A stretch of 64,000 nt of DNA from Candidatus Rariloculaceae bacterium (GCA_045561025.1 JBJKYM010000021.1:4312-68311); one strand, 5' to 3'; counted from the stretch's first letter, positions 3,431 to 50,025 are shown. Numbers and translations are program-made. The notes: generated by a model from the sequence alone, not told the origin.

Positions 3431-4483
3431 TTGCCGTCGATGGCGGCCCCTTCCACTCCAGACAGCAACGCAATTGCCGCCCTCAGGCTGGGCGAGGCAT
3501 CGTTCGAGTCATTTCCGACGGGTCTGATCAACGAGAGCTGGCTGGTCGTCCTGCCCGACGGCGAGCGGCGCGTACTGCAGCGCCTGAGCCCAATCTTCCC
3601 GGCAACGATCAACGACGACATCGACGCGGTGACAAGGCATCTCGAAAATCACGGGATGCTGACGCCACGACCGATCCCGGCACCCGACGGCGCACTCGCG
3701 ATCAGTATCGACGACCGCATCTGGAGGCAACTGACGTACATCCCGGGAAGAACCTTCGACGCGCTGAAGAATACTCAGCAGGCGGCTGAGGCTGGCGCAC
3801 TACTCGGTCGCTTCCACGCCGCTGTCGACGGGCTCGATTACCACTTCGCGAACCCACGTCTGGGAGTTCATGACACGGTAGCGCATCTATCCGATCTCGG
3901 CACAGCACTGAAGAAGCATGCCGAGCATGTCGAATTCTCGCGCATCGAAGCGCTCACGACCGAAATCTTCGAACTGGCGAACCGGCTACCGAACCTGGAT
4001 GAGCAGCCTGATCGCATCGTGCATGGCGACCCGAAGATCTCCAATATAGTGTTCTCGGACAATACCGGCGAGGCGAAGTGTCTGATCGATCTCGACACGC
4101 TGGGGCGAATGCCGGTCGTGCTGGAACTCGGCGATGCATTCCGCTCCTGGTGCAACCCGGCCGCCGAAGACGAGCCCGGCGCCGAGTTCTCGCTGTTGAT
4201 TTTTCACAGCGCAATCGCAGGCTACGCCGGCGAGACCAGCACTCTGCTCAGCGAGAGTGAGTGGTGCAAGATACCGGCGGCAACATTCACGATCACAGTC
4301 GAACTGGCAGCGCGTTTCTGCACCGACGCACTGAATGAAAGCTATTTTGGCTGGGACCCGACGCGCTTTCACAGCGCGAGCCGCCACAACCAGGCCCGCG
4401 CCCGCAGTCAGATCAATCTGGCGAACAGCATCGGCGATCACCGCGAACAAATCGAGACCGAGGTCAGGGCGGCGTTCACATAA
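3431..4483 (+). CDS. APH/choline kinase-like phosphotransferase family protein
   Basis: GLINESW, HGDPKISN (Brenner-type motif) and IDLDT motifs. Confidence 0.88.
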   Translation: MPSMAAPSTPDSNAIAALRLGEASFESFPTGLINESWLVVLPDGERRVLQRLSPIFPATINDDIDAVTRHLENHGMLTPRPIPAPDGALAISIDDRIWRQLTYIPGRTFDALKNTQQAAEAGALLGRFHAAVDGLDYHFANPRLGVHDTVAHLSDLGTALKKHAEHVEFSRIEALTTEIFELANRLPNLDEQPDRIVHGDPKISNIVFSDNTGEAKCLIDLDTLGRMPVVLELGDAFRSWCNPAAEDEPGAEFSLLIFHSAIAGYAGETSTLLSESEWCKIPAATFTITVELAARFCTDALNESYFGWDPTRFHSASRHNQARARSQINLANSIGDHREQIETEVRAAFT

Positions 4484-4586: not shown

Positions 4587-5921
4587 ATGCTCGAAGATCT
4601 CAGCGTTGTCGGAATCTCCTGGCGCCAGAACGGCAGCGAAGGGCTGGAACGCTATGCGCTGTCGGAGGATGGGCTCGCCGAAACGCTGCGCGAGTTCGCC
4701 GACCGTGCCGGCCTGGCGGAGCTCGCCTATCTTGCGACCTGCAATCGCGTCGAGTTGATCTTCGCCCGAACCGCAGCGACGCCGAGCCGCGATCTCCGCC
4801 CGCTCGTCTATGAACTCCTGACGGGAGGACCAGCGGCACCCGGCTTCGCGGAACGAGCGCTTAGAGCATGGCAGGGCGAAGGCGCCTGCGAGCACCTGTT
4901 CCTCGTCGTAGCCGGACTTGATTCGGCTGCCGTTGGCGAAGTCGAGATCGCCGGCCAGGTCCGTCAGTGTCATGAGCTCGCGCTCGAATCTGGTCTCAGC
5001 GGACCGCGCCTCGAGTTGCTGTTCGAGGAAGCATTGAAGATAGCTGCACTCGTCCGGGGCGAGACCGGTGTCGGCACCGGCCGCGTCTCCCTGGCCGAGG
5101 TCGCGGTCAAGTATATTCGCGAGCGTGTCTCGCGCACTCCCGGCACAACCGCCCTGATCGGCGTCTCACCGATGACCGAGCGCGCCGCACAATCGTTGAG
5201 TAAGACGAATACGCCATTACTCTTCGTCAACCGCTCGACCGACAAAGCTGCGGAACGTGCCGAAGCTTACGGAGCCGAGCACCTTTCGCTCGAGGAATTC
5301 AGGAACGATCCACCCGCGATCGAGGCGCTGCTGTCATCGACCGGAGCGAAAGATATTCTGATCGGCTCGTCCGTCCTCGAGCGCCTCGCGGCACGGACAC
5401 CGTCAGGCCAGCCGCCGCTACTTGTCGACATGGCGATACCCGCCGACATCGACAGCGAAGCCTGCGAACGGCTCGGAATAGAACGCATCGGCATGGATCA
5501 GATAACACTCGAGGCCGAGCAAAACCGGGAGGCACGCTTGCTCGAGGTGGCGCAGGCACGTGAACTCGTCGACGACGCTTTGCTACGGCTGCACGACCGC
5601 TTCGCCGAGCGTGTCTACGGGCCGCTATTCGGCGCGCTACAGCAGCGTTACCGACACACAGCACAGGAAGGCGTAAAGCGTCTGCTCAAGAAAGAACTCA
5701 GCGGTCTCGGCGACGAAGAACGCGCTGCGATCGAAAAATGGTCCGAAGTACTCGCGCGCCGTTTTGCGCATATTCCCTCTCTCGGCCTGCGCGGTCTCCT
5801 CTATAACGGCCCGGACGGTGCTCTCGATGCCTTCCTGGACGGTCTCGACCCGGAGTTTGCCGACGAGTTACGCCAAGCGCTGGATCAGGCGGCAACGCCG
5901 AAACGAGCGGCCGACCGATGA
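4587..5921 (+). CDS. hemA: Glutamyl-tRNA reductase
   Basis: LATCNRVE catalytic Cys motif, GLDS..VGE.EIAGQVR, DMAIPADI; first gene of the hem operon. Confidence 0.95.
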   Translation: MLEDLSVVGISWRQNGSEGLERYALSEDGLAETLREFADRAGLAELAYLATCNRVELIFARTAATPSRDLRPLVYELLTGGPAAPGFAERALRAWQGEGACEHLFLVVAGLDSAAVGEVEIAGQVRQCHELALESGLSGPRLELLFEEALKIAALVRGETGVGTGRVSLAEVAVKYIRERVSRTPGTTALIGVSPMTERAAQSLSKTNTPLLFVNRSTDKAAERAEAYGAEHLSLEEFRNDPPAIEALLSSTGAKDILIGSSVLERLAARTPSGQPPLLVDMAIPADIDSEACERLGIERIGMDQITLEAEQNREARLLEVAQARELVDDALLRLHDRFAERVYGPLFGALQQRYRHTAQEGVKRLLKKELSGLGDEERAAIEKWSEVLARRFAHIPSLGLRGLLYNGPDGALDAFLDGLDPEFADELRQALDQAATPKRAADR

Positions 5922-6835
5922 AGATACGTATCGGCACACGCGGTTCGCATCTTGCGCGGACGCAGGCGACCACGGTCGCGGGCGAGCTCGCAGAGCTGGG
6001 CCACGAGGCGGAACTCGTCATCATCAGCACCGCCGGCGACCAATCCAGCGCGCCGAGCTTCGGCGCGATCGGGCCGACAGGTGTGTTTGTGCGTGAGATC
6101 GAGCAGGCGCTGCTCGAAGAAACGGTGGACATCGCCGTTCACTCGTTCAAGGACCTGCCAACCGAATCACCGCCTGAACTCAAGCTCGCCGCGATACCGC
6201 GGCGCGAGGATGCCGCCGACGCGCTTGTCATGACGAGCGAAGCTGCCAGCGAGACTGTCGGCAGTATCCCGATCAGGAACGGCGCACGCGTCGGCACAGC
6301 TTCCGCACGGCGCCAGGCATGGCTCAAACACCTGCGACCGGATCTCATCGTCGAGCCGATACGCGGTAACGTTCCGACGCGTATCGGCCGGCTACATGAG
6401 GGTTTCGACGGGATCGTTCTCGCGGCCGCGGGCCTCGATCGTCTGCAGAACTCGAAGCTCGACGACGCGCCGGAACTCGGTCTCGACGACCGCATCGTAG
6501 CCCGGCTCGATCCCGCCGTCTTTATTCCGGCGCCGGCACAGGGTGCGCTGGCACTGCAGTGTCGCGCCGCGGACCGCGACATCGTCAACGCACTAAGCAT
6601 CCTGGCCCATAGCACGACGCAGCTCAGTGTCGCGGTTGAGCGGGCACTACTGGCGCGCGTTGAAGGCGGCTGCGATCTCGCATTCGGTGCCTGGTGCCAC
6701 GAAGACAGCAAACTGGACGGCAGCCTCGAGCTGATCGCGATGCTCGAACACGACGGCGAACTCGTCGCCGCCAGATCACATGGCAAAGATCCGCGTGCGC
6801 TCGTCACGATGGCATGGGAAGAGTTGCAAAGCTGA
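5918..6835 (+). CDS. hemC: Hydroxymethylbilane synthase
   Basis: IGTRGSHLA, VHSFKDLP, GTASARR, RGNVPTR, GGC cofactor Cys; ATGA overlap with hemA. Confidence 0.97.
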   Translation: MKIRIGTRGSHLARTQATTVAGELAELGHEAELVIISTAGDQSSAPSFGAIGPTGVFVREIEQALLEETVDIAVHSFKDLPTESPPELKLAAIPRREDAADALVMTSEAASETVGSIPIRNGARVGTASARRQAWLKHLRPDLIVEPIRGNVPTRIGRLHEGFDGIVLAAAGLDRLQNSKLDDAPELGLDDRIVARLDPAVFIPAPAQGALALQCRAADRDIVNALSILAHSTTQLSVAVERALLARVEGGCDLAFGAWCHEDSKLDGSLELIAMLEHDGELVAARSHGKDPRALVTMAWEELQS

Positions 6836-7569
6836 TGAGTTCACTCGCAGGACACAGCATCTTGATTACACGTAGCGCCGACGACTGCGACGAGTGGGCA
6901 CTCGCGCTGGAAGACGAAGGCGCGACCGTCGTCGTACTGCCGTGCATACATATTGAGCGGATCGACACCGAGTCGCTCCGTCAAGAAATCGCTGTAGAAC
7001 TACCACAGGCGGATTGGCTCGTGTTCACATCGCGGCGCGGCATCGACGCATTCGCCGCTCTGCACGCCGAGGCGTTGCCCAGTTTCGTCAACATTGCCGT
7101 TGTCGGGCCGGCGACGGCGGACGCGGCGGTCGTCGCGTTCGGCCGAGCGGATCTCGTCAGCGAGATGGGTACGGCTGCCTCACTGGCTCAGGCGCTGGAA
7201 GCGCGTATCACCGAGCAGCCGATGCGGGTGCTGATAGCCGTCGCCGAGAACGCCGGAGATACAATCGAAGAGACGCTGCGCGAGGCCGGCGCAACCTGTA
7301 CGCGGATTGACGTGTATCGTACCGTTCCAGCGGCCGAGCTCAGAAGAAAGGAACCGCTATCGTCATTCGACGCGGACAATATTTTCTTTGCGAGTCCCTC
7401 GGCGGTGAGGGGCTTCGTCAATCAGGTCGAGCTCGACACCGAAGCAGCGATTTTTACTATCGGCCCGACGACGACCGAAGCCGTGCTGGAGGAAGACCTG
7501 GACCTCACCGACCAGGCGAAGAATCCCGGGCTCGATGGATTAATGGAGGCACTGCGATGCGCGAACTGA
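6835..7569 (+). CDS. hemD: Uroporphyrinogen-III synthase
   Basis: Start at the TGATG overlap (6835); ILITR, FTS, VGPATA, VYRT, FASPSAV, IGPTT motifs. Confidence 0.93.
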   Translation: MSSLAGHSILITRSADDCDEWALALEDEGATVVVLPCIHIERIDTESLRQEIAVELPQADWLVFTSRRGIDAFAALHAEALPSFVNIAVVGPATADAAVVAFGRADLVSEMGTAASLAQALEARITEQPMRVLIAVAENAGDTIEETLREAGATCTRIDVYRTVPAAELRRKEPLSSFDADNIFFASPSAVRGFVNQVELDTEAAIFTIGPTTTEAVLEEDLDLTDQAKNPGLDGLMEALRCAN

Positions 7570-8561
7570 ATGTAACCACGCCGGGACGCGTTCGGCCGCG
7601 TCGTCTGCGCCGGACGAGCGCGCTGCGCGACCTGGTCGCGGAGACGCATATCTCTCCGTCGCAATTCATCGTGCCCCGGTTTGTCCTTCCCGCAGAAAAC
7701 GCTGACGAGCCGATCCCATCGCTGCCCGGACTGTCACAGGTCGGACGAGACAATCTTGTTGCCGACGTCGCCGCCGATCTCGAACTCGGGATACGCGCGG
7801 TCCTGTTATTCGGTCACCCCGAAGACGACGCGACGAAAACAGCGGATGGCGAACTCGCCTGGGACCCCAACGGTGCGGTGCAGCTTGCTGTCGCACGTCT
7901 GAAGGCCGAGTTCGGCGACGATCTGATCGTCATGACCGACGTCTGCCTCTGTGCGTATACCGATCACGGCCACTGCGGGCTCGTCGATGGAACGCGCGTC
8001 CTCAATGACGAGTCACTGGATCCCATCGTGCGCACCGCGCTAAGCCACGCGGATGCTGGTGCCGACATCGTTGCCCCGTCCGACATGATGGACGGACGCA
8101 TCGCAGCGATCCGCGACGGTCTCGACGATCAGGGCCACAGCGATGTCGCGTTACTCGCCTATGCGGTGAAGTACGCTTCCGCCTACTACGGACCGTTTCG
8201 CGATGCCGCGGATTCCTCACCTCAGCAGGGCGACCGGCAGAGTTACCAGATGGACGCACGCAATGGGCTCGAAGCGCTGCGCGAAGCGGACCTCGATGAA
8301 TCCGAGGGCGCTGACATGATCATGGTGAAGCCGGCGCTGGCCTATCTCGACGTCATCCAGGCGGTACGCAGTACGACGACGTTGCCGCTGTCGGCCTATA
8401 ACGTCTCCGGCGAATACGCGATGGTCAAGGCAGCGGCGGCCAACGGCTGGATCGACGAGGCGCGTGTCGTTCGCGAAAACCTGTACGCAATTCGCCGCGC
8501 CGGAGCCGACCAGATCATCACTTATCATGCCCGCGACGCGATCAAGGGCGGTTGGCTGTGA
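7557..8561 (+). CDS. hemB: Porphobilinogen synthase
   Basis: RPRRLR, DVCLCAYTDHGHCG (Zn site), APSDMMDGRI, MVKPA, YNVSGEY. Confidence 0.98.
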   Translation: MRELNVTTPGRVRPRRLRRTSALRDLVAETHISPSQFIVPRFVLPAENADEPIPSLPGLSQVGRDNLVADVAADLELGIRAVLLFGHPEDDATKTADGELAWDPNGAVQLAVARLKAEFGDDLIVMTDVCLCAYTDHGHCGLVDGTRVLNDESLDPIVRTALSHADAGADIVAPSDMMDGRIAAIRDGLDDQGHSDVALLAYAVKYASAYYGPFRDAADSSPQQGDRQSYQMDARNGLEALREADLDESEGADMIMVKPALAYLDVIQAVRSTTTLPLSAYNVSGEYAMVKAAAANGWIDEARVVRENLYAIRRAGADQIITYHARDAIKGGWL

Positions 8562-9874
8562 CCAAAAGCTCCGAAGACTGGTTTGAGAAAGCGCAGAAAG
8601 TCCTGCCGGGCGGTGTGAGTTCGCCGGTGCGCGCCTATGGCGCAGTCGGCGGTACCCCACGCGTGATCGCTGCTGCCAAAGGCGCCGAGATCACCGATGT
8701 CGACGGCAACACCTATCTGGACTTCGTCGGCTCCTGGGGACCGTTGATCCTCGGTCATGCGCACCCGGACGTCGTCAAAGCCGTTACCCGGGCTTCTAAA
8801 CAGGGCATGTCCTATGGCGCACCCTGCCGTGCCGAGATCAAGCTGGCGGAACGGGTTGTTGACGCCTACCCCGGGATCGAACAGGTACGCTTCGTATCGT
8901 CGGGTACCGAAGCCGTCATGAGCGCGGTACGTCTGGCTCGCGGCGCGACCGGTCGTGATCTGATCGTGAAGTTCTCCGGTTGCTATCACGGGCACATGGA
9001 CTCGCTGCTCGTCGCAGCGGGCTCCGGTCTTGCAACGTTCGGCCGACCTTCATCCGACGGCGTTCCCGAGAACTTCACCAATCTCACGAGAGTACTGAAG
9101 CTCGACGATGACGAAGGGCTCATCGATCTGTTCCGTACCGAGGGTGCTCGCATCGCGGCCGTCATCATCGAACCTATTCCGGCGAACAACGGCCTGCTGG
9201 TACAACGACCGGATTTTCTTCAGCTTCTTCGTGACCAATGCAGCGAACACGGCGCGCTGCTGATCTTCGATGAGGTCATTTCGGGCTTCCGTATCGGCAA
9301 AGGCGGGGCGGCGGATTATTACGGCATCACGCCCGACATCGCGACGTTCGGCAAAGTCATCGGCGGCGGTATGCCGGTAGGCGCATTCGCATCGACGCGT
9401 GAAATCATGCAGCATCTTGCTCCCCTCGGCGGCGTTTACCAGGCGGGTACGCTATCGGGCAACCCGGTCGCGATGACCGCGGGCCTCGAAACGCTAAAAA
9501 TCATGAGTAAAGACGACGGCTGGGCGCAGCTCGATGCACGCGGCCAGTATCTGGAGATTCTGCTGAACCCGCTTCTGGAGAACGCCGCGATCGACGCGAC
9601 ACTTTCACGAGTCGGTTCGATGTTCTGGATCGCCCTGCACGCCAACACTCCACCGCGTTGTGCAGAAGCAATTTCAGCCCAGGCGGGCGAAACCTACGCG
9701 GGAATATTCCACGCCCTGCTCGCGCGCGGTATCGCGCTTGCGCCCTCAGCGTACGAGATCGGCTTTATCTCGATGGCGCACAGCCGCGACGACCTCGACC
9801 AGCTGGCCGCTACGCTCGGCCATGTATTGAACGACGTAACACCGACCGATTCCGGAGAGACCCATGATCCTTAA
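8558..9874 (+). CDS. hemL: Glutamate-1-semialdehyde 2,1-aminomutase
   Basis: PGGVSSPVRA, SSGTEA, GCYHGH, FDEVISGFR, FGKVIGGGMPVGA, YQAGTLSGNP; GTGA overlap with hemB. Confidence 0.98.
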   Translation: MTKSSEDWFEKAQKVLPGGVSSPVRAYGAVGGTPRVIAAAKGAEITDVDGNTYLDFVGSWGPLILGHAHPDVVKAVTRASKQGMSYGAPCRAEIKLAERVVDAYPGIEQVRFVSSGTEAVMSAVRLARGATGRDLIVKFSGCYHGHMDSLLVAAGSGLATFGRPSSDGVPENFTNLTRVLKLDDDEGLIDLFRTEGARIAAVIIEPIPANNGLLVQRPDFLQLLRDQCSEHGALLIFDEVISGFRIGKGGAADYYGITPDIATFGKVIGGGMPVGAFASTREIMQHLAPLGGVYQAGTLSGNPVAMTAGLETLKIMSKDDGWAQLDARGQYLEILLNPLLENAAIDATLSRVGSMFWIALHANTPPRCAEAISAQAGETYAGIFHALLARGIALAPSAYEIGFISMAHSRDDLDQLAATLGHVLNDVTPTDSGETHDP

Positions 9875-10949
9875 TCGTGACCCCGTTAAGGCATTACAGA
9901 TCGGTTTTCTTGCACTGCTGCTGGTTTGTATCGCGCAGGTCGCATGGTGGACGACCGAGTCGGTGAGCTATACGCGAACCATGAGCTCAAGAGTAGCCGG
10001 GCTCTACGAAGCCGACGCCCGAGCGGTGGTCGCGGTTTATTCCAACACCCCCGAAGCACTCGAGGAGCTGCTGCCGCATCTCGACATCTCGCCGAGCGAC
10101 GGTACCGCCTCGGTCAATGCGGCCGTCTCGGCGGTACTCGAGAACGAAGCCTCATCTCGCATCAATCGTCATGCATGGGAGGGAGGTTTCTTCGTACTCG
10201 TATTACTCGGCGGCCTGACTGTTCTGACGCGAACGATTCGTCACGACGCCGAATTACGCGCCCGTCAGCAGAATTTCCTCGCTGCCGTATCGCACGAGTT
10301 CAAGAGCCCGCTCGCAAGCATGCGGCTCTCGGCCGAGACATTGTTAATGCGCGTAAGCGATGAAGACAGCCAACGCCTCGGCAATCGGATACTGGACGAC
10401 GGCGAACGCCTGTTACGCATGGTCGACAATCTTCTCGACACAACCCGTCTCGAGGAAGGTCGCGTCCAGCTCAACCCCGAAATCATGCGGCTTCATCCGC
10501 TTGCCCAGGCCTGTGCCGAGGAGCTGACAGATCGCGCCGCACATAACAACATTGAGCTAACCGTCGATGTACCGGAACGGCTGGCGATACATGCCGACCG
10601 CACCACGCTGGAGACTGTATTGCGCAACCTGCTCGACAATGCCGTCAAAGCCTGTGTCGCCGGCAAGGGTCAGCATATCGAGTTGCGTGCCAAACAGGCC
10701 GACGATCGTGTCGAATTTTCTGTCAGCGACGATGGCCTCGGGTTCCCGCCCGAGGATGCCAGCATGATTTTCGAGAAGTTCTACCGGCTCGGCGACGAGC
10801 TGCGACGCTCGACTCCCGGGACCGGACTCGGTCTGTACATCGTCCGTCGTCTGGTCGAGCTTTCCGATGCTCGTATCTCCGCCGAGAGCGAAGGTCCGGG
10901 CAGGGGCGCGACCGTCACGGTTTCATGGCCTGAGGCGAAGACCGCATGA
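9864..10949 (+). CDS. Sensor histidine kinase (2 TM, HisKA + HATPase)
   Basis: AVSHEFKSPL H-box, NLLDNAVK, DDGLG, IFEKFYR, GTGLGL; overlaps the end of hemL. Confidence 0.95.
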   Translation: MILNRDPVKALQIGFLALLLVCIAQVAWWTTESVSYTRTMSSRVAGLYEADARAVVAVYSNTPEALEELLPHLDISPSDGTASVNAAVSAVLENEASSRINRHAWEGGFFVLVLLGGLTVLTRTIRHDAELRARQQNFLAAVSHEFKSPLASMRLSAETLLMRVSDEDSQRLGNRILDDGERLLRMVDNLLDTTRLEEGRVQLNPEIMRLHPLAQACAEELTDRAAHNNIELTVDVPERLAIHADRTTLETVLRNLLDNAVKACVAGKGQHIELRAKQADDRVEFSVSDDGLGFPPEDASMIFEKFYRLGDELRRSTPGTGLGLYIVRRLVELSDARISAESEGPGRGATVTVSWPEAKTA

Positions 10950-11656
10950 GTCGGGATGCCGCTCGCATACTCGTCGTTGACGACGAAGAGCATCTCGCGG
11001 AGGGCATTCGCGAGAACCTCGTGGCCGAGGGCTACGAGACCGAAGTCGCGCATGACGGGGAGCGAGGTCTCGCGATGATTCGCAAGAGCGCCTACGACCT
11101 GATTCTGCTCGACGTCATGATGCCCAAGCTCGACGGCCTGAAGGTCTGCGAAGAAATACGTGCCGATGGCCTGCAGACACCCGTGCTGTTTTTGACCGTC
11201 AAGAGCGAGCCGGCCGATCGTATCCGTGGGCTCGAGGCGGGCGGTGACGACTACCTCGGCAAACCATTTCACCTCAAGGAACTGCTGCTTCGCGTCTCCG
11301 CTATTCTGCGTCGCAGCGACTGGTACAACGAGAGCAACGCAAACCTAAGCTTCGGTGGCAACGAGATCGACTTCAAGACCTACCACGCGCGCGCCTGGGA
11401 CGGCAGCGAACACGCGCTGACCCACAAGGAGGCGATGATACTGAAGGTCCTCGCCGAACAGCTTGGAGCGATCGTGCCGCGCGAAGAGATACTCGACAAA
11501 GTCTGGGGCTACGAAGTCTTCCCTTCCACCCGCACGATCGACAATTTCATCGTGCGTCTACGTCGCCGCTTCGAACGCAATCCCGAAGCGCCCGAATATT
11601 TTCACACTGTCCGTGGGGTCGGCTATCGCTTTACCCAGGAACCGGATGCCAACTGA
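10946..11656 (+). CDS. OmpR/PhoB family response regulator
   Basis: LVVDDE, LDVMMP, KPF, TRTIDNFIVRLR, TVRGVGY; ATGA overlap with the kinase. Confidence 0.96.
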   Translation: MSRDAARILVVDDEEHLAEGIRENLVAEGYETEVAHDGERGLAMIRKSAYDLILLDVMMPKLDGLKVCEEIRADGLQTPVLFLTVKSEPADRIRGLEAGGDDYLGKPFHLKELLLRVSAILRRSDWYNESNANLSFGGNEIDFKTYHARAWDGSEHALTHKEAMILKVLAEQLGAIVPREEILDKVWGYEVFPSTRTIDNFIVRLRRRFERNPEAPEYFHTVRGVGYRFTQEPDAN

Positions 11657-11670
11657 AAGAGATAGATCCC

Positions 11671-12720
11671 TTGAAAAAACTTCTGCTGGAAACAATCGAA
11701 CGAAAACCAACTGCGCGCCGCCCTTTGTGGATCATGCGTCAGGCCGGCCGCTACCTGCCTGAGTACCGTGAGCTGCGCAAGAAGCATTCGTTTAAGGAAT
11801 TGTCGGGCTCCGCGGATCTAGCGACCGAAGTAACGCTGATGCCGATCAAGCGCTTCCCACTCGATGGCGCGATCGTCTTCGCGGACATCATGAGTCCGCT
11901 ACCTGCAATCGGTGTGGATTTCGATTTCGATCCGGGCCCGGTGGTCGAGAATCCGATTCGCGATCAGGCGGGTGTGGATGCGCTGCATCACGCCAACGCG
12001 GAGGAAATCGCGCCTGAAGTAATGACTGCTTTGCAACAGGTGCGTGCAGAACTGCCCGATGAGACTGCGCTGCTCGGTTTCTGTGGCGCACCGTGGACAC
12101 TGGCCGCCTATCTCGTAGAAGGCCGCGGCGCAAAGGACTTTCCGACACTGCGGGCATTCGCCGCCGCTCAACCCGCAGCCCTCGACAGTCTGCTTGGGAA
12201 GCTCTCCGACCTGATGGTTCACTACCTGATTAACCAGGCACGCGCAGGAGCAGACGCGGTGCAGATCTTCGACTCCTGGGCTGGCGTCCTGTCGCTGGCG
12301 GATTGGAACCGACTGATTCGGCCGCATCTGCACGCGCTACTGGAGGCCGTGGGTAGTGCCGGCGTCCCCCGCATACTGTTTCTGCAGAATGCGCCTCATC
12401 TTATCGATGCTTACGCGAGTCTCCCCGCCGAAGTTCTCGCCGTGGACTGGCGCTGCGATTTGCCGGAGCTGCAGAACCGCTATCGGGACCGTCTCGCCAT
12501 ACAGGGCAATATCGATCCCGCGATACTTCTGGGCGGTGCCGAGCCAACGCACGCTGCCGCACGAGAGCTGTTGGAGCGCGTCGATGCCACCGGTCATATC
12601 GTCAATCTCGGCCACGGCATACTTCCAGGCACGCCGATAGCCAGCGTAGAGGCACTGGTCGAGGCTGTGCACAACGAGTCGGAGCTGACGCAACACCAAC
12701 CTACTTTGAGCGGAGCGTGA
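11671..12720 (+). CDS. hemE: Uroporphyrinogen decarboxylase
   Basis: WIMRQAGRYLPEYR, FADI, GAPWTLAAY, QIFDSWAG, QGNIDP, NLGHGI. Confidence 0.97.
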   Translation: MKKLLLETIERKPTARRPLWIMRQAGRYLPEYRELRKKHSFKELSGSADLATEVTLMPIKRFPLDGAIVFADIMSPLPAIGVDFDFDPGPVVENPIRDQAGVDALHHANAEEIAPEVMTALQQVRAELPDETALLGFCGAPWTLAAYLVEGRGAKDFPTLRAFAAAQPAALDSLLGKLSDLMVHYLINQARAGADAVQIFDSWAGVLSLADWNRLIRPHLHALLEAVGSAGVPRILFLQNAPHLIDAYASLPAEVLAVDWRCDLPELQNRYRDRLAIQGNIDPAILLGGAEPTHAAARELLERVDATGHIVNLGHGILPGTPIASVEALVEAVHNESELTQHQPTLSGA

Positions 12721-12721
12721 G

Positions 12722-13441
12722 ATGAGCGAAACGCAATCCGAAGGCCTGGACCTCAGCGAGAAGGGTCTTAAGAACGGCGAACAGATCTCGCTTGATCGAC
12801 GACTGTTCATGAAATTTACGGCGTTCACCGGCTGCACGGATAACGGCGTGGCTGCTGCCGAAGCGTTGTCGAATGCGGGCGTCGTCGGCGCACTCTATGT
12901 CGATGCGAACGACCCGGAGGGGCTGGGGCTGGTCGTCCTGAGCGAAGACCCAGACTACTTCGTCGACACGTTGCGAAATCTGTTCAACGCGGCGCCATTC
13001 GCTGAGCTGACGCACAAACCCGAGTTCGACATGCTCGGTCGGACCTACTCCATCGGCTACGAGCCCGATCTGGAGGACGCGCTGTTCGTCAAGCCGCGAA
13101 GCAAGACGCTGAACCCCGAATTTTCATGGGCAGTCTGGTATCCATTGCAGCGCGCGAAGTCGTTTCAACGTCTGCCCGAGGCTAAGCAACGGCAGATACT
13201 AGGCGAACACGGGACGCTGGCCAAGCGCTACGGATTTGCCGGACTCGCCGCCGACGTCCGACTCGCCTGTCATGGTCTGGACAAGAACGACAACGATTTC
13301 ATTATCGGGCTACTCGGTCCGAATCTCTTTCCGCTGTCTGCCGTCGTCCAGGAGATGCGCAAGACGGAGCAGACGGCGCAGTACCTCGATAGCCTCGGAC
13401 CCTTCTTCGTCGGCAAGGTCGCCTGGCAGAGCCCCGGATAG
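12722..13441 (+). CDS. hemQ: Chlorite dismutase superfamily protein, probable coproheme decarboxylase (ChdC/HemQ)
   Basis: WYPLQR..F..LP...QRQILGEHG (YP motif and proximal His), C-terminal GPFFVG; lies between hemE and the ferrochelatase; no export signal. Confidence 0.78.
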   Translation: MSETQSEGLDLSEKGLKNGEQISLDRRLFMKFTAFTGCTDNGVAAAEALSNAGVVGALYVDANDPEGLGLVVLSEDPDYFVDTLRNLFNAAPFAELTHKPEFDMLGRTYSIGYEPDLEDALFVKPRSKTLNPEFSWAVWYPLQRAKSFQRLPEAKQRQILGEHGTLAKRYGFAGLAADVRLACHGLDKNDNDFIIGLLGPNLFPLSAVVQEMRKTEQTAQYLDSLGPFFVGKVAWQSPG

Positions 13442-13449
13442 ATAGCAGC

Positions 13450-14499
13450 ATGTCCGAGCAGGAATATGACGCGATACTGATCATCTCGTTCGGAGGACCG
13501 GAAGGTCCGGACGATGTGATGCCGTTTCTCGACAACGTTCTCGCGGGCCTGAAGATCCCGCCCCCGGTAAAGGAGCGAATTGCGAAGCGCTACGATCAAT
13601 TCGGTGGAGTTAGCCCGATCAACGGCGAGACCCGAGCGTTCATAGCCGCCCTCGAATCCGACCTGAAGGAAAACGGCATCGAGCTTCCACTGTACTGGGG
13701 GAACCGCAACTGGCATCCGTTTCTTACCAAGACGCTGGCGCAGATGGAAGCCGACGGCGTACGTCGAGCAATTGCACATGTAACGAGCACGTTCAGCTCC
13801 TATAGCGGATGTCGCAAGTACCGCGAAGATCTGTACGCGGCTACCGCTGACCTTGCCAACGCGCCGGTCATCGACAAGCTGCGGCTCGGATTCAATCATC
13901 CTGGATTCATCACCGCGGTAATGGACAGAACGGACTCGGCGCTCGAGCAGCTGCCCGATGACAGTCGCGACGACGCAATGCTGTTATTCACGGCGCACAG
14001 CCTGCCCGAGTCGATGGCCACGCATGCCGCGTACGAGACACAGCTACGCGACGCCTGCACACTGGTCGCGGCCGGGCTCGAGCATGCGCAGTGGGATCTC
14101 GTCTATCAAAGCAACAACGCGTCCTACGGCGAGCCCTGGCTCGAACCGGACATCAGCGAGGCGCTGGAGCAGACCGCAAAGAGCGGCACAAAAGATGTCA
14201 TCGTCGTGCCCATCGGCTTCGTCTGCGACCATATGGAAGTCATACTCGATCTCGACATCGAAGCGCGTGCAGCGGCCGAGGAAGCCGGCATCAATATGAT
14301 TCGTGCCGCGACCGTCGGCACCCACCCGGCCTACGTCGCGATGGTGCGCGAGCTCATCGAGGAGCGGCTCCATCCGGAGAAGGAACGCCTTAGCCTCGGC
14401 GGCCTTGGTCCGAGCCACGATGTCTGTCCGGCGAACTGCTGCCTCTCCGGCCGACCCGGCGATCCCAAACCCGCGCTCTGCGGAGTTGATGGCGCCTGA
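13450..14499 (+). CDS. hemH: Ferrochelatase, actinobacterial type (probable coproporphyrin ferrochelatase CpfC)
   Basis: SFGGPEG, FGGVSPIN, WGNRNWHPF, SYSGCRKYRED, FTAHSLP, WLEPD, GFVCDHMEV..DLD; C-terminal GPSHDVCPANCC. Confidence 0.95.
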   Translation: MSEQEYDAILIISFGGPEGPDDVMPFLDNVLAGLKIPPPVKERIAKRYDQFGGVSPINGETRAFIAALESDLKENGIELPLYWGNRNWHPFLTKTLAQMEADGVRRAIAHVTSTFSSYSGCRKYREDLYAATADLANAPVIDKLRLGFNHPGFITAVMDRTDSALEQLPDDSRDDAMLLFTAHSLPESMATHAAYETQLRDACTLVAAGLEHAQWDLVYQSNNASYGEPWLEPDISEALEQTAKSGTKDVIVVPIGFVCDHMEVILDLDIEARAAAEEAGINMIRAATVGTHPAYVAMVRELIEERLHPEKERLSLGGLGPSHDVCPANCCLSGRPGDPKPALCGVDGA

Positions 14500-14501
14500 A
14501 G

Positions 14502-15866
14502 TTGACTGAGGTATTCGAACACGACGTGATCGTCATCGGCGCGGGGCTAGCGGGCCTCAGCGCTGCACTGAAACTGCAGCAGGCCGGTGTCGATGCAGTC
14601 GTTCTTGAAGCGCAGGATCGCGTCGGCGGCCGCGTTCATTCAATGCGTCAGCTCGGCAGCAACAAAGAGGCCGGCGGCACATATATTGGCGCCGGCTATA
14701 CGCGAATTATCGGCGCGGCCGAGCGTTACGGTGTAGATCTTATCGACGTGACACCGATGCTGAAGTTCTTCCGCGAACAGGAGCTCGTGCTGGATGGCGA
14801 GATCATTCGCCAGGCCGATTGGCCGGATCATCCGGCGAATCTATTCAGCGGCGATGACCGCGAGATCATGCCCTGGGCCTACCATCGCCTGCTTACGGTC
14901 AGGGAGAATCCGCTTAGCGAACCCGGTGACTGGCTGAGCGACGATGCCGCGAAGCACGACGTCTCGGCATACGACTGGCTCAAGTCTATCGGCTTCAGCG
15001 ACGACGCGGTTCAGCTGGCTTACGGTATGAACGTCAGCTTCGGAGAGAACGCGCACGACGTGTCGGCGCTATTGTTATTTTTTCGCGCAGCGTTCTCCGT
15101 CGCTCAGCGAAAGCTGGCGCCTGAAGGTGTTGTCGGCTACACGGCCAGAAATGGCGTCGCCCGAATTCCCGAGGCGATGGCCGAGGCACTCACACGGCCG
15201 GCGCAACTCGGCAAGGTCGTCACCGCGATAGACGGCCAGCAGCAGCAAGCAGAAGTACATTGCACGGATGGCAGCCGTTACCGGGCGCCGCATGTTATCT
15301 GCTCGCTTCCCTTCAGCGTTCTGCGCGATATCGACATCAACCCGAAACTGCAGGGACAGCAGGCCGAGGCCGTCAGTACGCTGCCTTCGCAGGCGATGAC
15401 GCAGGTTTATCTGGCGCATAAATCCAACTTCTGGGAAGCCGACGGCTATACGCCAAGTCTGTTCACCGACGGTATTGCCGGAATGGTCGCGGGCGCACGC
15501 AACGGCGAAGATCCCGAAGAGGTTACGAGTTTCACATCGTGGACACTCGGCCCGAACGCGAGTCTGCTCGACACGCTGTCACCAGAGGACGCGGGCCGGC
15601 GCGTAATCGAAGCCATAGAATCCGCGCGTCCGGCCGCCAAAGGGCAGCTCGAGTTTTTAGGGATTCAGTCCTGGGGAAGCGACGCATTCGCGCGCGGCGG
15701 ATGGGCTTACTTCCGGCCCGGTGAAATCCAACGATTCGCAAGCTGTATGGGCGACCCGCACGGCCAGATTCGCTTCTGCGGAGAGCACCTCGCCCAAACG
15801 AGTCGCGGCATGGAAGGCGCGATGGAGTCGGGCGAGCGCGCCGCCGCAGAGATTCTTTCACTGTAG
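14502..15866 (+). CDS. FAD-dependent flavin monoamine oxidase family protein
   Basis: IGAGLAGL...EAQDRVGGR, EAGG, C-terminal FCGEH...GMEGAMESGERAA; starts 2 nt after the hemH stop. Confidence 0.9.
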   Translation: MTEVFEHDVIVIGAGLAGLSAALKLQQAGVDAVVLEAQDRVGGRVHSMRQLGSNKEAGGTYIGAGYTRIIGAAERYGVDLIDVTPMLKFFREQELVLDGEIIRQADWPDHPANLFSGDDREIMPWAYHRLLTVRENPLSEPGDWLSDDAAKHDVSAYDWLKSIGFSDDAVQLAYGMNVSFGENAHDVSALLLFFRAAFSVAQRKLAPEGVVGYTARNGVARIPEAMAEALTRPAQLGKVVTAIDGQQQQAEVHCTDGSRYRAPHVICSLPFSVLRDIDINPKLQGQQAEAVSTLPSQAMTQVYLAHKSNFWEADGYTPSLFTDGIAGMVAGARNGEDPEEVTSFTSWTLGPNASLLDTLSPEDAGRRVIEAIESARPAAKGQLEFLGIQSWGSDAFARGGWAYFRPGEIQRFASCMGDPHGQIRFCGEHLAQTSRGMEGAMESGERAAAEILSL

Positions 15867-20575: not shown

Positions 20576-21815
20576 ATGAGTACTCCTCGCGTTGTCATTG
20601 TCGGCGGCGGCTTTGCGGGCCTCTCCGCTGCGCGCGGCCTGGCCGGCGCCGACGTCGACGTGCTACTCATCGACCGGCACAACTACCACCTGTTTCAGCC
20701 GCTGTTATATCAGGTCGCAACGGCCGGTCTTTCGCCGGGCGAGATCGCCTGGCCGATACGCAGCCTGCTTCGACAGCAACGCAATGCCCGCGTCGTGCTT
20801 GGCACGGTCGATGGAATCGACAGCGACGCGCGAGTCGTAAGGCTCGGAGACCGTGAGGTCAATTATGACTACCTGGTTCTAACGACAGGCGCGCGCCATG
20901 GCTACTTCGGTCATGGGACTGGGAAGAATACGCACCCGGGCTCAAGACCGTCGACGACGCAACCGAGATTCGACGACGTATCCTCGTCGCGTTCGAGAGA
21001 GCCGAGATTGAGGGCGATCCCGAGAAACAGCGTGCGTTGCTGACGTTCGTCATTGTTGGCGGCGGACCGACCGGCGTCGAACTCGCGGGAGCGCTCGTCG
21101 AACTGGCGCGACGAGCACTGGCGCGAGACTGCCGACGCATCGACCCCAGTACGGCGCGCGTCATTCTCGCGGAAGCCGGCCCGCGCATCCTGCCTGCCTT
21201 TCCGGAAACACTCTCCGAGACAGCAACGAAAGCACTGCAGAAGCTCGGGTGGAAGTTTTAACCGGTGCTGCGGTGACGAACTGCGGCGACGACGGCGTCG
21301 CGATCGGCCAGCAAAAGATCCCGGCACGAACGATCATCTGGGCCGCAGGCGTCGCTGCCTCTCCGGTCGCCAGCTGGCTCGGGGTGGACGGAGATGCCGC
21401 CGGGCGAGTAAACGTGAATCCTGATCTAAGCGTTCCCTGCCATGAGAATATCTATGTTGCGGGTGACGTAGCACGGGTCGTCTGGGGCGAGCAGCTCGTA
21501 CCCGGCGTCGCACCCGCCGCTAAGCAGATGGGGCGATATGTCGCGAAGGCGATCCGCGCCCACCTGGACGGTAGAGCGGCCGATGCCTTCGCATACAAAC
21601 ACTATGGCAATCTCGCGACTATCGGCAGAAGCCGAGCGGTTATCGATTTCGGCTGGCTGCGCCCGCGCGGCTGGATCGCCTGGTGGATCTGGGGCATCGC
21701 CCACATCTACTTCCTGATCAGCCTGCGCAATCGCGCCCTCGTTGCCTGGCAGTGGCTGTGGTCCTACATCACCTTCCAACGGGGCGCGCGCCTGATCACG
21801 GGTAACGACGAGTAG
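20576..21815 (+). pseudogene. ndh: Type II NADH dehydrogenase family FAD oxidoreductase, two frameshifts
   Basis: VGGGFAG, FQPLLYQVAT / WEEYAPGLKTVDDA..IVGGGPTGVELAG / WAAGV, GDVA, APAAKQMG, GNLATIGR are spread over three frames. Shifts fall at GGG runs 20915-20917 and 21247-21249, so sequencing error is possible. Confidence 0.85.
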
Positions 21816-26772: not shown

Positions 26773-27777
26773 TTAGTAGACCGTGCATTCGTAGCGTTCG
26801 ATCTCTTCGCCGAATGCCATCCAGTATCTTTCGTAAGTGGCAGGCCCGGAGAAGATCGTCGGATCGGCCAGGACGAACTGATAATCGAGCCGTGATTGAT
26901 CGGCACTCAAGGTAAAGCGCTCTACGATCTCTACGTCTTCTGTCTGCGGCGTACCAAGATTGTCGAAGTAGGGCCAGTTAATCAGGGTCGTATTCACAAT
27001 CAGAGTCGACCCATCCCAGCGACCTGTCGAGTAACCCAGCATGGAAGCGGCAGTCCCGGCAGGCGGCGCATCGTGGTCCATATGGATGGTGCGCTCGAGA
27101 TCATAGAGCTCGGAAATCACCCGGATCCGGTCGCCATCGTCAACGAACTCGAACGGATGGGGATTACGCATCAGCCGCGGCATTCCACCGCCCTCGCAGT
27201 TCTCTGCGAAGTTATCGATCTCATCCCACTCAGCGCGTGCCGCGAGAGCGTAGTCGGTGAACGGAAAGTCTGTCGTCTGCCCAACAAAGTTAGGCACACC
27301 GCTCCAGACACGGTAGATAACGCGATTCTCGGCGGCCGCATCGACCGTGCTGGTCGATGTCTGGTGTGGAGCGAACTCGGCCACGTCCGCGTTCGACCAG
27401 TGCAGCGCCACATTCGGTGCCAATAGAATTTCCCTGCCGTTCTCAAGCAACATGTTGCTCGTGAGCATGTCCCGCTCACGTCTGACAGAGACGCTTCCAA
27501 GAAACGCCACCTGCTCGCCGATCGTAAAGAAGCTCTCGTCGATTCCACCACGCCGCATGCTGCCGAGATTGGACGCGCCTTCTATTCGCCACTCCTCGAT
27601 CTGTCCGTCCTCATTGGTCACGTTAATTGTGAAACCGACATGAGGATTAACCCAGTGAACGGCGACAAGTTCACCGGCCAACTCCTGAACCTCGTCAGGG
27701 TAATGTGAACGCGAATGATGCGCAGCCGCCGAGAGCGGGACCGAAAGTGCTAAGACGATAACGGCACGGCTATTCAT
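26773..27777 (-). CDS. DUF6152-like exported two-domain protein (paralogue 1)
   Basis: Signal peptide then HHS...G.L..V.WVNPH; second domain C...GMP..M..P.P, RTIHMD, GYSTGRWDG, ERFTL, DP, YEC. Confidence 0.8.
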   Translation of the reverse strand: MNSRAVIVLALSVPLSAAAHHSRSHYPDEVQELAGELVAVHWVNPHVGFTINVTNEDGQIEEWRIEGASNLGSMRRGGIDESFFTIGEQVAFLGSVSVRRERDMLTSNMLLENGREILLAPNVALHWSNADVAEFAPHQTSTSTVDAAAENRVIYRVWSGVPNFVGQTTDFPFTDYALAARAEWDEIDNFAENCEGGGMPRLMRNPHPFEFVDDGDRIRVISELYDLERTIHMDHDAPPAGTAASMLGYSTGRWDGSTLIVNTTLINWPYFDNLGTPQTEDVEIVERFTLSADQSRLDYQFVLADPTIFSGPATYERYWMAFGEEIERYECTVY

Positions 27778-28837
27778 GTCCTTTCCGAAGTCGTTGCTCC
27801 ACTACGAATCGACTCGTCGATTCTTCGTCACAGTCGAACGGGGTCGAAACATGATCGGGCTGATAGATCATTTCTCTATCGTGGGTCATCGGTGCGACGA
27901 AGTACTCGGGGTCCTCGAGCAGGAAGTCGAGCAGGATTCGAGTACCGTCTTCGCTGAGTTCGTAACGCTCCACAACGTGTTTCTCCGCGCCGGAAGGAAT
28001 TCCGGTCTGATAGGGAGAGCGGTGATCTTCGAAATTTCGGGTGTCGACGATCAGCACATTCTCCTCCAGCGTGCCGATTGAGTGCCCTGTCTGAAAACGC
28101 TGACTGATATCGGGATGCGGGCGGCCGTCCATATAGACGATGCGTTCTTCATCGAAGAAATCGCTACGGATCGCGATCCTGTCACCACCGTCGAGATATT
28201 CGATCTGTATAGGATAAAGAATCGAGGAGATAATCATGGCCGGCGTGGGCCGCCCGACGCAGGTCGCGTTCGGGTTCTCATCGGTGAGTTCGGAATATGC
28301 AGTCTGCGCCGCAGCGCCTTTCTCGTTCGGCGTCAGCTGTGCGCGAAAAAATCCGTCGAAACCGCCCGGATAGTCGACGAGCTTGTCTCCATCGGAGGCC
28401 CAGAATCCCTCCAGCGTTGTCGTGCTCTCGGTCACCTCCGGCGAGTCAATACGTGGCTCGTATGATGTGCCGTAGAACGCCGCGCCCAGTGGAATTCCGC
28501 CTTCCTTCTCGATTGACTCGAGCAACGCGTAGGGGCGCCCGTCAATGGCTGGATGAGCTGCGATTGTGACCCGATCTCCAGGCACCAGCGAATCACGTGT
28601 CCAGCCGCTACGTGAAACCGTCATCGTCGAGCTCGTCTGCACCGACCATTGCACCGTCTCGCCGTTATCGTCCAGGGTATCGACGACGACATACACATGC
28701 GGATTACGCCAGGCGTACTCGACGACCGTGCCATCAAAGGTCAACGTGGTCTCCATGTCGAGTCCTGCGTCGCTGTGATGAGCCGCTGCCGGTAGAGAGA
28801 CGGCAGCGGACGCCGCAAGCAATACCCCTAATCTCAT
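27770..28837 (-). CDS. DUF6152-like exported two-domain protein (paralogue 2)
   Basis: AAA|HHS, WRNPH, GWTRDSL.PGD; second domain RIVYMDGRPHP, GHSIG, ERYEL, DPEY, FDCD. Confidence 0.8.
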   Translation of the reverse strand: MRLGVLLAASAAVSLPAAAHHSDAGLDMETTLTFDGTVVEYAWRNPHVYVVVDTLDDNGETVQWSVQTSSTMTVSRSGWTRDSLVPGDRVTIAAHPAIDGRPYALLESIEKEGGIPLGAAFYGTSYEPRIDSPEVTESTTTLEGFWASDGDKLVDYPGGFDGFFRAQLTPNEKGAAAQTAYSELTDENPNATCVGRPTPAMIISSILYPIQIEYLDGGDRIAIRSDFFDEERIVYMDGRPHPDISQRFQTGHSIGTLEENVLIVDTRNFEDHRSPYQTGIPSGAEKHVVERYELSEDGTRILLDFLLEDPEYFVAPMTHDREMIYQPDHVSTPFDCDEESTSRFVVEQRLRKGHE

Positions 28838-48534: not shown

Positions 48535-48968
48535 TGACGATTGAGGTTCGTATCGCTGATTTCGAGAAAGAACAGGAGTTTCTGCGTCTGATCCGATTTA
48601 TGGTATTCGTCGAAGAGCAGCAGGTGCCGGCGGAGATGGAGATGGATGATGAAGATTTAGTCTGCATCCATGTACTCGCACTATACGAAGGCGAACCCGT
48701 CGGCACGGGACGTATCGACATCGGCAAGGCCGGCAAGATAGGTCGCGTCGCAGTTCTCAGCTCAAGGCGCCGGCAGGGGGTCGGTGAGGCAGTGATGACG
48801 TTGCTGCACGATCTTGCGCGGCAGAACGCACTTGCCGGCGTCTGGTGCAACGCACAGGTATCGGCTGTACCGTTCTATGAGAATCTGGGGTATCGCGTCA
48901 CGAGTGCAGAACCCTTCGATGAGGCGGGCATTCCGCATCTGCGGATGGAATACGACTGCTCGTCCTGA
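48534..48968 (+). CDS. GNAT N-acetyltransferase (ElaA/YjcF-like)
   Basis: IR..VFVEEQQVP..E.D, IGRVAV..RRQGVG, NAQ..AVPFY..LGY, FDEAGIPH. Confidence 0.93.
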   Translation: MTIEVRIADFEKEQEFLRLIRFMVFVEEQQVPAEMEMDDEDLVCIHVLALYEGEPVGTGRIDIGKAGKIGRVAVLSSRRRQGVGEAVMTLLHDLARQNALAGVWCNAQVSAVPFYENLGYRVTSAEPFDEAGIPHLRMEYDCSS

Positions 48969-49026
48969 ACTGGGTAGAATCGGGGGATTGGCATCGACAG
49001 AACCTAGTTCCTGTAAGAGGGAGGCG

Positions 49027-50025
49027 ATGATGAGATCGATCGTTGAGCGGTCTGGCGTAGCGCTCGCAACACTCTTGATCATGCTACCCGCGGTGGCGCA
49101 TCACAGCCGTTCCGTATTCGATCGGGATCGCGTCGTTACGATTGAGGGTGTCGTGACCGAGTACGAGTGGGCTAATCCGCACGTCACTGTATTCGTCGAG
49201 ACAACGAGCGATTCGGGCGATGCCGTCGTCTGGGCGTTCGAGGGCGGTGCGACCACGTACCAGAAAGGCCGGGGATGGACGAGCGACATGCTCGCTCCCG
49301 GCGACCATGTCATCGTCGAGGGCAATCCTCTGCGGGCTGCCGACGCGACGACCGCGGATGTTATTTCGGTCCGAAGAGCAGGCGTTGCCGCAATGCCGGA
49401 GGGGAGCGAACCCGAAGTCTTTCGAGCCGATGGCCTATCCGGGATCTGGTTTATTCCCCAGAACGCCTCGCATAGAAAATTCTCTACGCCTTCTTCCTAC
49501 CCCTGGTCTTTTACACCCGGGGGTGCTGACGCTTTCGCGACCTACGATGACAGGACGATGAATCCACAGAACGAGTGCGGTGCCCGTACGGCTCCGTGGC
49601 TCATGACCTGGGGCGTATTCAGCATCGAGGTGGGTGACCGCCTGACGTTCATTCGCACGGAGTTCGATACCGTAGAGCGAACTGTTTATATGGACGCCAT
49701 GTCTCACGACGGTACTGCCGTCACGACGCAGGGTCACTCGATCGGCCGGTGGGAGGACGACGTTCTGGTTATCGACACGACTCATTTCTCCGATCACCGC
49801 ATCGGCAACGGTCGAGGCATACCGTCAGGCACGCAGAAACACCTCGTCGAACGCTTCGAGTTGAACGCCGACGCAACAGGACTAACATACCACTTCGAAC
49901 TTGAGGATCCGGAGTATCTGTCCTCTCCGACCTCAGGCGCGCTGCCGGCGGCGTATCGACCGGATCTCGGCTTCGAATCTATAACGTGCGACCCGGAGGT
50001 TGCACGGCGGTTTCTGGATGAATAG
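49027..50025 (+). CDS. DUF6152-like exported two-domain protein (paralogue 3)
   Basis: AVA|HHS..FD, EWANPH; RTVYMD, GHSIGRWEDD.LVIDT, ERFEL, DPEYL, CDPE. Confidence 0.8.
   Translation: MMRSIVERSGVALATLLIMLPAVAHHSRSVFDRDRVVTIEGVVTEYEWANPHVTVFVETTSDSGDAVVWAFEGGATTYQKGRGWTSDMLAPGDHVIVEGNPLRAADATTADVISVRRAGVAAMPEGSEPEVFRADGLSGIWFIPQNASHRKFSTPSSYPWSFTPGGADAFATYDDRTMNPQNECGARTAPWLMTWGVFSIEVGDRLTFIRTEFDTVERTVYMDAMSHDGTAVTTQGHSIGRWEDDVLVIDTTHFSDHRIGNGRGIPSGTQKHLVERFELNADATGLTYHFELEDPEYLSSPTSGALPAAYRPDLGFESITCDPEVARRFLDE

Follow-up and report, generated by a model that had tools for sequence, protein, structure and literature searches.

How does a gammaproteobacterium make heme when its late heme genes are those of the coproporphyrin route and the oxidase of that route is missing? 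The question is raised by a stretch of 64,000 nucleotides from Candidatus Rariloculaceae bacterium (GCA_045561025.1, JBJKYM010000021.1:4312-68311), here called the window. Open reading frame (ORF) calls and profile searches place on its + strand a closely packed cluster of 12 genes in the order APH-hemA-hemC-hemD-hemB-hemL-sensor kinase-response regulator-hemE-chdC-like-cpfC-flavoprotein, the last of which we abbreviate FAO. The coproporphyrin route, with CgoX (HemY), CpfC (HemH), and ChdC (HemQ), is that of Bacillota and Actinomycetota and has been reported in Chloroflexi and Acidobacteria too (PMC10740692); in the accessible text of two sources, the non-delta Proteobacteria are described as mainly protoporphyrin users (PMC10740692, PMC5095920). 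For coproporphyrinogen oxidation, only CgoX and CgoN are named in the accessible parts of a 2026 review (PMC13564367) and of a second paper (PMC10965808), and the same review states that, for all organisms that make heme, the enzymes already known appear to suffice (PMC13564367).

The feature is genuine and extends across the family; it is a variant of the known coproporphyrin pathway. In common with the canonical pathway are HemE, a CpfC-type ferrochelatase, a ChdC-fold protein with the catalytic Tyr, and, in most genomes, the lack of HemF and HemN. It differs in its gammaproteobacterial host, in having a monoamine oxidase (MAO)-like flavoprotein in the slot of the absent CgoX or CgoN, and in uniting all of the C5 pathway with a two-component pair in one cluster. 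Judging from residues, fold, and context, a coproporphyrin-dependent route very probably operates in the family. By this route, the 12 genes are predicted to lead from glutamyl-tRNA to heme b, with FAO as the likely substitute oxidase. HemA, HemL, HemB, HemC, HemD, and HemE would, on their family assignments, lead to coproporphyrinogen III; FAO would, if our preferred assignment is right, remove six electrons via flavin adenine dinucleotide (FAD), probably to O2; and coproheme would arise by Fe2+ insertion through CpfC and be decarboxylated twice by ChdC through a Tyr140 radical with H2O2, the last two steps being suggested by residues, fold, and context. A full-text literature search found no paper on this operon; genomes of this kind, or the ChdC clade itself, may already appear in the tables or supplements of earlier surveys.

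Since the source genome is a metagenome-assembled genome (MAG) of 1.84 Mb that is 57% complete, gene absences had to be checked in relatives. The host is a gammaproteobacterium, as the initial annotation had supposed: its RpoB is 72% identical to those of Pseudomonas and E. coli and 65% to that of Neisseria, and close ChdC homologues are labelled Gammaproteobacteria bacterium and Ca. Rariloculaceae. The latter is the probable family, and only probable because the name is based on one named match at 72% identity. Our comparison set 36 family genomes against 24 other members of the order, with wider sets of 85 family genomes for HemY and 400 other genomes of the class for ChdC. The ChdC-like gene is present in 33 of the 36 and in none of the 24, and the ChdC query found no match in the 400 genomes of the class; the three family genomes without it are G002 and G005, which are 74–80% complete, and G004. 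HemF is found in 0/36 family genomes versus 21/24 others (18 of the 21 strong), HemN over its cut-off in 2/36 versus 13/24, and strong HemJ in 0/36 versus 15/24. HemY is scarce on both sides (2/36 and 2/24), and in the whole family TIGR00562 detects it in 2 of 85 genomes, both times in a HemN-PpfC cassette. Five near-complete family genomes were searched for CgoN (PF07285), which none of them has. The siroheme (Ahb) route was rejected on the same five, where AhbD never exceeds its cut-off (best score, 64 of 500 bits). The absence of hemF, hemN, hemG, and hemJ from the cluster, read by the initial annotation, is borne out by ORF calls and profile searches, and HemF, HemJ, HemN, and a HemG-type flavodoxin were not found in the rest of the 57% complete source MAG either. 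Most of the family has no enzyme known to oxidise coproporphyrinogen, whether on the one route or the other. Counting against this picture are weak HemJ-like matches in 5/36 family genomes and HemG-like flavodoxins in 4/36 (4/24 in the others). Contamination or misassembly was considered and is excluded by the identical gene order in 27 family loci, single-contig genomes included, and in metagenome contigs. Separately, an unrelated gammaproteobacterial MAG (L163:4633-13086) carries chdC-cpfC-hemY near cytochrome bd genes, an independent canonical coproporphyrin cassette.

Is the Cld-superfamily protein a coproheme decarboxylase? Its gene (12722..13441) directly follows hemE (11671..12720; TIGR01464 372 bits, above cut-off), and the gaps separating hemE, the chdC-like gene, cpfC, and FAO are 1, 8, and 2 nt. 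The YP-x-x-R motif that had been read in it is there, as W139-Y140-P141-L-Q-R144, and PF06778 (45.6 bits), the structural model, and the residues lead us to predict a ChdC of a divergent WYPLxR subfamily. Residues Y140, P141, R144, and H163 are invariant over 31 aligned homologues. In an HMMER alignment, Y140, R144, H163, R213, and T218 fall on Y147, K151, H174, R220, and S225 of Listeria ChdC (numbering counted from the alignment), among which the Tyr is presumably catalytic and the His proximal. D178 occupies what is presumably the distal slot, that of Listeria Q187, and an invariant R180 lies two residues further. The best PDB sequence matches are ChdC-type proteins (1vdh, Listeria, Corynebacterium). 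The AlphaFold model (mean predicted local distance difference test, pLDDT, 95) aligns in VIA-align with Z-scores of 19.3 and 18.4 to ChdCs versus 13.9 to chlorite dismutase and 12.8 to dye-decolourising peroxidase (DyP), and among its Foldseek matches there are only ChdCs until rank 43. With the ChdCs of Geobacillus (1t0t), Listeria (6fxj), and Corynebacterium (6xub), the protein has in common the double ferredoxin-like fold (Z 18–19, root-mean-square deviation 2.7 Å), the Y-P-x-x-K/R, the proximal His, a conserved Arg, and the last-helix Ser/Thr; it differs in having Leu rather than Met after YP, and in the invariant distal Asp178 and Arg180. The same subfamily occurs in Gaiellales, Anaerolineae, Acidobacteriota, Dadabacteria, Spirochaetales, Bacteroidota, and others, often in hem operons with hemE and cpfC, a context that is the strongest argument for ChdC function. 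In the best 80 of 599 named loci from other phyla, ranked on a Gaiellaceae seed, a HemY-type gene was seen by eye at 38 and an FAO orthologue at none.

Some points weigh against this assignment. Scores are far below the curated ChdC cut-offs (NF008913, 27 of 253 bits; NF042928, 32 of 235), so the protein must be placed in a divergent subfamily; its identity to solved ChdCs is only 15–22%, and the literature searched held no characterised member of the subfamily. In true chlorite dismutases, a distal Arg is indispensable (PMC7611857, in its accessible part). The invariant D178-x-R180 pair is unusual, and R180, two residues from the distal position, leaves some doubt on ChdC versus chlorite dismutase. 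The protein could accordingly be a heme chaperone, a peroxidase, or a chlorite dismutase, with heme made by a different route. We regard this as most improbable: the protein retains the catalytic Tyr and the proximal His, the HMMER alignment puts Asp and not Arg in the distal slot, ChdCs are the closest structures, and the subfamily stands in hemE-cpfC-hemY operons across several phyla. Moreover, since HemF is absent from the family and HemN so rare, nothing else there would remove the two carboxyl groups.

The subfamily extends to eukaryotes, with members in Perkinsus marinus (P0197) and Amoebophrya (P0193); a literature search on heme and HemQ in Perkinsus found no paper. P0164, P0177, P0197, and P0214 form a support-98 clade in the ChdC tree, three of the four with a hydrophobic N-terminal extension. 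In P0127 and P0154 (Omnitrophota and one other), the ChdC follows a domain of ~360–390 residues that looks aldo-keto reductase-like by eye. A ChdC labelled Alphaproteobacteria/Rhodospirillales (P0121 cluster) nests within the family clade, a possible onward transfer of the family chdC; its alphaproteobacterial locus was not recovered in the metagenome scan (best identity 69%).

The next gene (13450..14499) encodes a predicted coproporphyrin ferrochelatase, CpfC, of actinobacterial type (NF000689, 393 of 408 bits). The actinobacterial signatures that had been reported are all present: WGNRNWHPF (residues 83–91), SYSGC (117–121), and CPANCC (326–331). CxxxCC is found in 27/27 family ferrochelatases and YS[GS]C in 26/27, and this conservation, like that of Y140, P141, R144, and H163 in the ChdC homologues, argues that the motifs are not due to chance. 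The best PDB match is a coproporphyrin III ferrochelatase (28wn, 241 bits), versus 122–135 bits for Firmicute-type enzymes and 90–96 bits for the human-type mitochondrial enzymes. A 39-row tree places the enzyme in a support-100 clade with those of Nonomuraea and a Caldilineaceae member, apart from the protoporphyrin ferrochelatases (PpfC) of G004 and G014. It has F14, R47, Y48, Y124, H183, and E263, of which H183 and E263 are presumably catalytic, and the cysteines C121, C326, C330, and C331, which likely hold a [2Fe-2S] cluster. As far as the accessible texts go, a proximal Phe, to which F14 corresponds here, is a feature of actinobacterial ferrochelatases (PMC10427985), Y124 of the Listeria enzyme, for which the window protein has an equivalent Tyr, lies near propionate 2 (PMC7340540), and four cysteines go with the [2Fe-2S] cluster (PMC8529089). 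Thus, the ChdC and CpfC predictions made in the initial annotation hold on sequence, structure, and context, with the protoporphyrin genes missing family-wide.

What, then, fills the oxidase step? The initial annotation described a complete Glu-tRNA-to-heme operon, and the genes for the other steps are indeed present; since there is no CgoX, the operon is complete only if the fourth gene of its late part fills that step. This gene (14502..15866) encodes FAO, an MAO-like FAD oxidoreductase covered over its full length by PF01593 (179 bits, residues 16–452). FAO was considered as a CgoX/HemY and rejected, as its TIGR00562 score is 35 bits (cut-off 98) and the match, residues 7–58, covers the FAD-binding start only. 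We propose that FAO is a candidate non-orthologous enzyme, probably a new, substitute coproporphyrinogen III oxidase. It would carry out the same reaction as CgoX/PgoX (HemY) from the same operon slot after the ferrochelatase, without being a member of the HemY family; proteins of the two types reportedly belong to the same FAD superfamily (Dailey and Dailey, 1998, by title).

The linkage of FAO to the heme genes is tight. FAO matches occur in 31/36 family genomes, and the order chdC-cpfC-FAO holds in 27/27 family loci fetched, including those of reduced genomes of 1.2–1.6 Mb. We also examined 80 metagenome contigs, with gene order counted only over contigs with room for it: cpfC follows chdC in 64/67, and FAO follows cpfC in 47/47, with HemY there in none. 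FAO is also about as well conserved as core genes of the pathway (mean identity to the window protein, 60%, versus 62% for HemA and 56% for HemC). The idea that FAO is part of the cys island downstream was rejected: at 14/48 loci, FAO remains beside cpfC with neither cysH nor cysB within 2.5 kb downstream, and tblastn did not find it in the fetched cys loci of G038 and G050.

The ancestry of FAO points to the host order itself. Its nearest relatives (44–51% identity) belong to other families of the order, where their genes have unrelated neighbours, and bear twin-arginine translocation (Tat) signals. The twin-Arg motif was flagged in 21/25 non-operon paralogues, the other four showing RR by eye, but in only 1/28 operon copies, where the match is upstream of the likely start. 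The FAO tree unites the operon copies in a single clade (support 100), next to the Tat paralogues (94). R129 is found in 28/28 operon copies and 0/25 paralogues, and R195 in 27/28 operon copies and none of the five nearest paralogues, all of which have an Asp at position 400 that operon FAO has lost; Y61 and Q93 are further operon-specific residues. R195 aligns with MAO-B Y188, which we take to line the substrate cavity. MAOs have a two-residue aromatic cage and a conserved Lys near flavin N5. In FAO, W401 keeps the first cage position, and all 28 operon copies have G436 at the second cage Tyr and Q301 at the MAO Lys. Compared with the flavin monoamine oxidases (human MAO-A/B, putrescine oxidase, NicA2), FAO has in common the fold, the GxGxxG start, and Trp401; it is unlike them in having no covalent-FAD Cys, in the Gln and Gly just mentioned, in the operon-specific Arg129 and Arg195, in its predicted cytoplasmic location, and in its coupling to cpfC. 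It is tempting to propose that this change toward basic residues would suit a substrate with four carboxylates. As observations apart, two operon copies (L030 and L033, from G031 and G019) have an in-frame insertion of roughly 30–40 residues near position 205–220, and the sister lineages G046, G038, and G050 have up to eight MAO-like paralogues per genome.

Several findings weigh against FAO as the oxidase. It is MAO-like by sequence and fold: the solved structures nearest to it are those of monoamine and putrescine oxidases, with which a language-model search concurs, and the fold matches monoamine oxidases at a TM-score of 0.78 and Z 35–38. No porphyrinogen oxidase is among the top structural matches listed, CgoX being outside the top 50, and BLASTP against three HemY proteins gives short matches, mainly over the ~53 residues of the FAD-binding start. 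CgoX is described as needing a large cavity (PMC10740692, accessible part). A tree in which operon FAO and HemY are united was not rejected by an approximately unbiased (AU) test (p = 0.244), so that derivation from the Tat paralogues is not statistically secured. These findings leave room for another account, in which the coproporphyrin route runs while FAO, at the operon end, is an amine or amino-acid oxidase with no part in it; coproporphyrinogen would then be oxidised without an enzyme or by one encoded elsewhere that has gone unrecognised. Besides the MAO-type fold and family, it can draw on the fact that porphyrinogens auto-oxidise in air. We consider it rather unlikely, since FAO is as conserved as core genes, is kept in reduced genomes, stays with cpfC at loci without the cys genes, and no longer has the Tat signal, and since related operons of other phyla have a dedicated HemY.

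A natural deletion speaks for a part of FAO in the pathway. G004, a 95% complete genome of the same genus, retains the cluster from APH through hemE, but the end of hemE (window 12685) is joined to about codon 364 of FAO (window 15591), leaving a 58-codon FAO remnant before cysH; chdC, cpfC, and most of FAO are absent. In the same genome, a PpfC-HemN fusion and HemY lie on a contig that is host-like, its flanks matching the genome from which the window comes. The three genes were lost together in G004 when a protoporphyrin tail was available. This loss is, however, a single contiguous event that took out neighbouring genes, in which FAO may have been a mere bystander, a point in favour of the unrelated-oxidase account, and G014 keeps both systems. 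The fusion (L053:2831-5257) is itself a curiosity, a ferrochelatase-HemN protein of 809 aa followed by hemY; the same three genes are unfused in G014.

Linkage and co-deletion fit equally well with an indirect role. MAO-type enzymes produce H2O2, and FAO might aid the pathway without itself oxidising the porphyrinogen, for example by supplying H2O2 locally to ChdC or by serving as a redox partner. ChdC uses two H2O2 per coproheme (PMC10427985, accessible part). This would leave the six-electron oxidation without an enzyme, as CgoX, CgoN, HemG, and HemJ are absent in most family genomes searched. The residues presumed to serve as MAO Lys and second cage Tyr are replaced in FAO, and the gained arginines would suit an anionic substrate better than an amine. 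An indirect role is thus improbable, and oxidation of coproporphyrinogen III by FAO remains our preferred reading.

Where did the operon come from? The initial annotation suggested en bloc acquisition, perhaps replacing the native pathway, and neither part is supported by the comparisons as it stands. The window chdC and cpfC are closest to a Chloroflexota operon (59% and 51% identity), the early genes of which are only 29–47% identical in full-length matches, and the nearest kin of FAO are Tat-bearing proteins of the host order. In the ChdC tree, a Caldilineaceae/Anaerolineae-type relative is sister to the family (support 84). The heme operons of Caldilineaceae/Anaerolineae and Gaiellales (e.g., L148 and L252) have the same WYPLRR ChdC subfamily, with chdC and cpfC adjacent in the same order, but differ in having a canonical HemY, no FAO, and another gene order; L252 also has no embedded kinase-regulator pair. 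The closest Chloroflexota operon reads chdC-cpfC-hemA-C-D...hemB-hemE-hemY-hemL, and among genomes picked near the family in the ChdC tree, 4/5 have HemY and 0/5 FAO. In the HemB tree, the family is placed with no sampled phylum; its HemB is outside a support-100 clade of 15 native enzymes of the order and joins the long G038/G046 branch at 97. A search of viral contigs for HemA found nothing. Recent transfer was rejected, as the operon's GC content (0.60–0.65) and third-position GC (0.66–0.75) resemble those of cysG and cysK and the composition is fully host-like.

As to replacement, a gap was more likely filled than a native pathway displaced, because HemE, HemF, and ferrochelatase are already missing from the nearest relatives. 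Five order members have no HemE, no true ferrochelatase, and no strong HemF match, yet have COX1; they are predicted heme auxotrophs. In an RpoB tree of 36 rows under a mixture model (17 of 53 rows left out), the family and these five genomes form one group, with a support of 87, or 96 without G050. G038 and G050 carry, beside cysG, a divergent hemA'-C-B-L set that is consistent with siroheme synthesis only. Side by side, the loci L185, L186, and L187 (G046, G038, and G050) show a divergent hemC(-D)-hemB-hemL set, which in G038 and G050 includes a short HemA-like ORF and adjoins cysG-cysK.

An old, mosaic regain of heme synthesis fits better than en bloc replacement, and it would be a regain after loss because the nearest relatives are without HemE and ferrochelatase but keep the cytochrome oxidase. 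The lineage would first have lost the late protoporphyrin pathway; the family ancestor would then have assembled foreign hem genes, with a chdC-cpfC pair of the type now seen in Chloroflexota and without hemY; and its own Tat-exported flavoprotein paralogue would have been recruited, losing its signal peptide and gaining basic residues. Speaking against this history are the RpoB support of only 87, the long branches of G056 and G057, and the failure to find a donor of the early genes, although the true donor may be unsampled because only the best 80 of 599 loci, ranked on a Gaiellaceae seed, were covered. To the whole account we give an even chance: that a third kind of coproporphyrinogen III oxidase, derived from a periplasmic MAO-like protein, completed a borrowed pathway of Gram-positive type with an uncharacterised ChdC subfamily and so gave heme synthesis back to a gammaproteobacterial lineage that had been heme-auxotrophic, and that one member later reverted to the protoporphyrin route, deleting all three genes.

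The early genes, all on the + strand, are hemA, glutamyl-tRNA reductase (4587..5921; TIGR01035 197 bits, cut-off 210; PF05201, PF01488, PF00745); hemC, hydroxymethylbilane synthase (5918..6835; TIGR00212 258 bits, above cut-off); hemD, uroporphyrinogen III synthase (6835..7569; PF02602 146 bits); hemB, porphobilinogen synthase (7557..8561; NF006762 462 bits), which has a single locus per family genome, in one case with the gene divided between two contigs; and hemL, glutamate-1-semialdehyde aminomutase (8552..9874; TIGR00713 529 bits, above cut-off). A membrane sensor histidine kinase (9864..10949; PF00512, PF02518) and an OmpR-type response regulator (10946..11656; NCBIfam OmpR-type matches, all below cut-off) lie within the operon, in conserved position, in every family locus covering the region, and likely regulate heme synthesis. 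An APH-family phosphotransferase (3431..4483; PF01636) stands directly 5' of hemA in most family loci reaching that far, reduced genomes included; we know of no link between this family and heme. Scans for promoters and terminators gave signal at chance level. Downstream in the window lie cysH, cysB, cysG, and cysK. Further along, an NADH-dehydrogenase-II-like gene (20576-21815) is apparently split over two frames by eye, and paralogous secreted proteins with a common 'A(H)HS...G.V....W.NPH' start are encoded at 26773-28837, 48814-50025, 52069-53160, and 57974-58960.

In a gammaproteobacterial family that has ChdC and CpfC and no known oxidase, a step of the pathway is truly unaccounted for, and there is one candidate for it that can be tested directly. 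Should FAO act as proposed, porphyrinogen oxidation would have arisen again within the amine-oxidase superfamily. If the reading is true, calls of heme prototrophy and auxotrophy for environmental genomes would change, and the loss of a heme pathway, its regain, and a switch of route would be documented within one clade.

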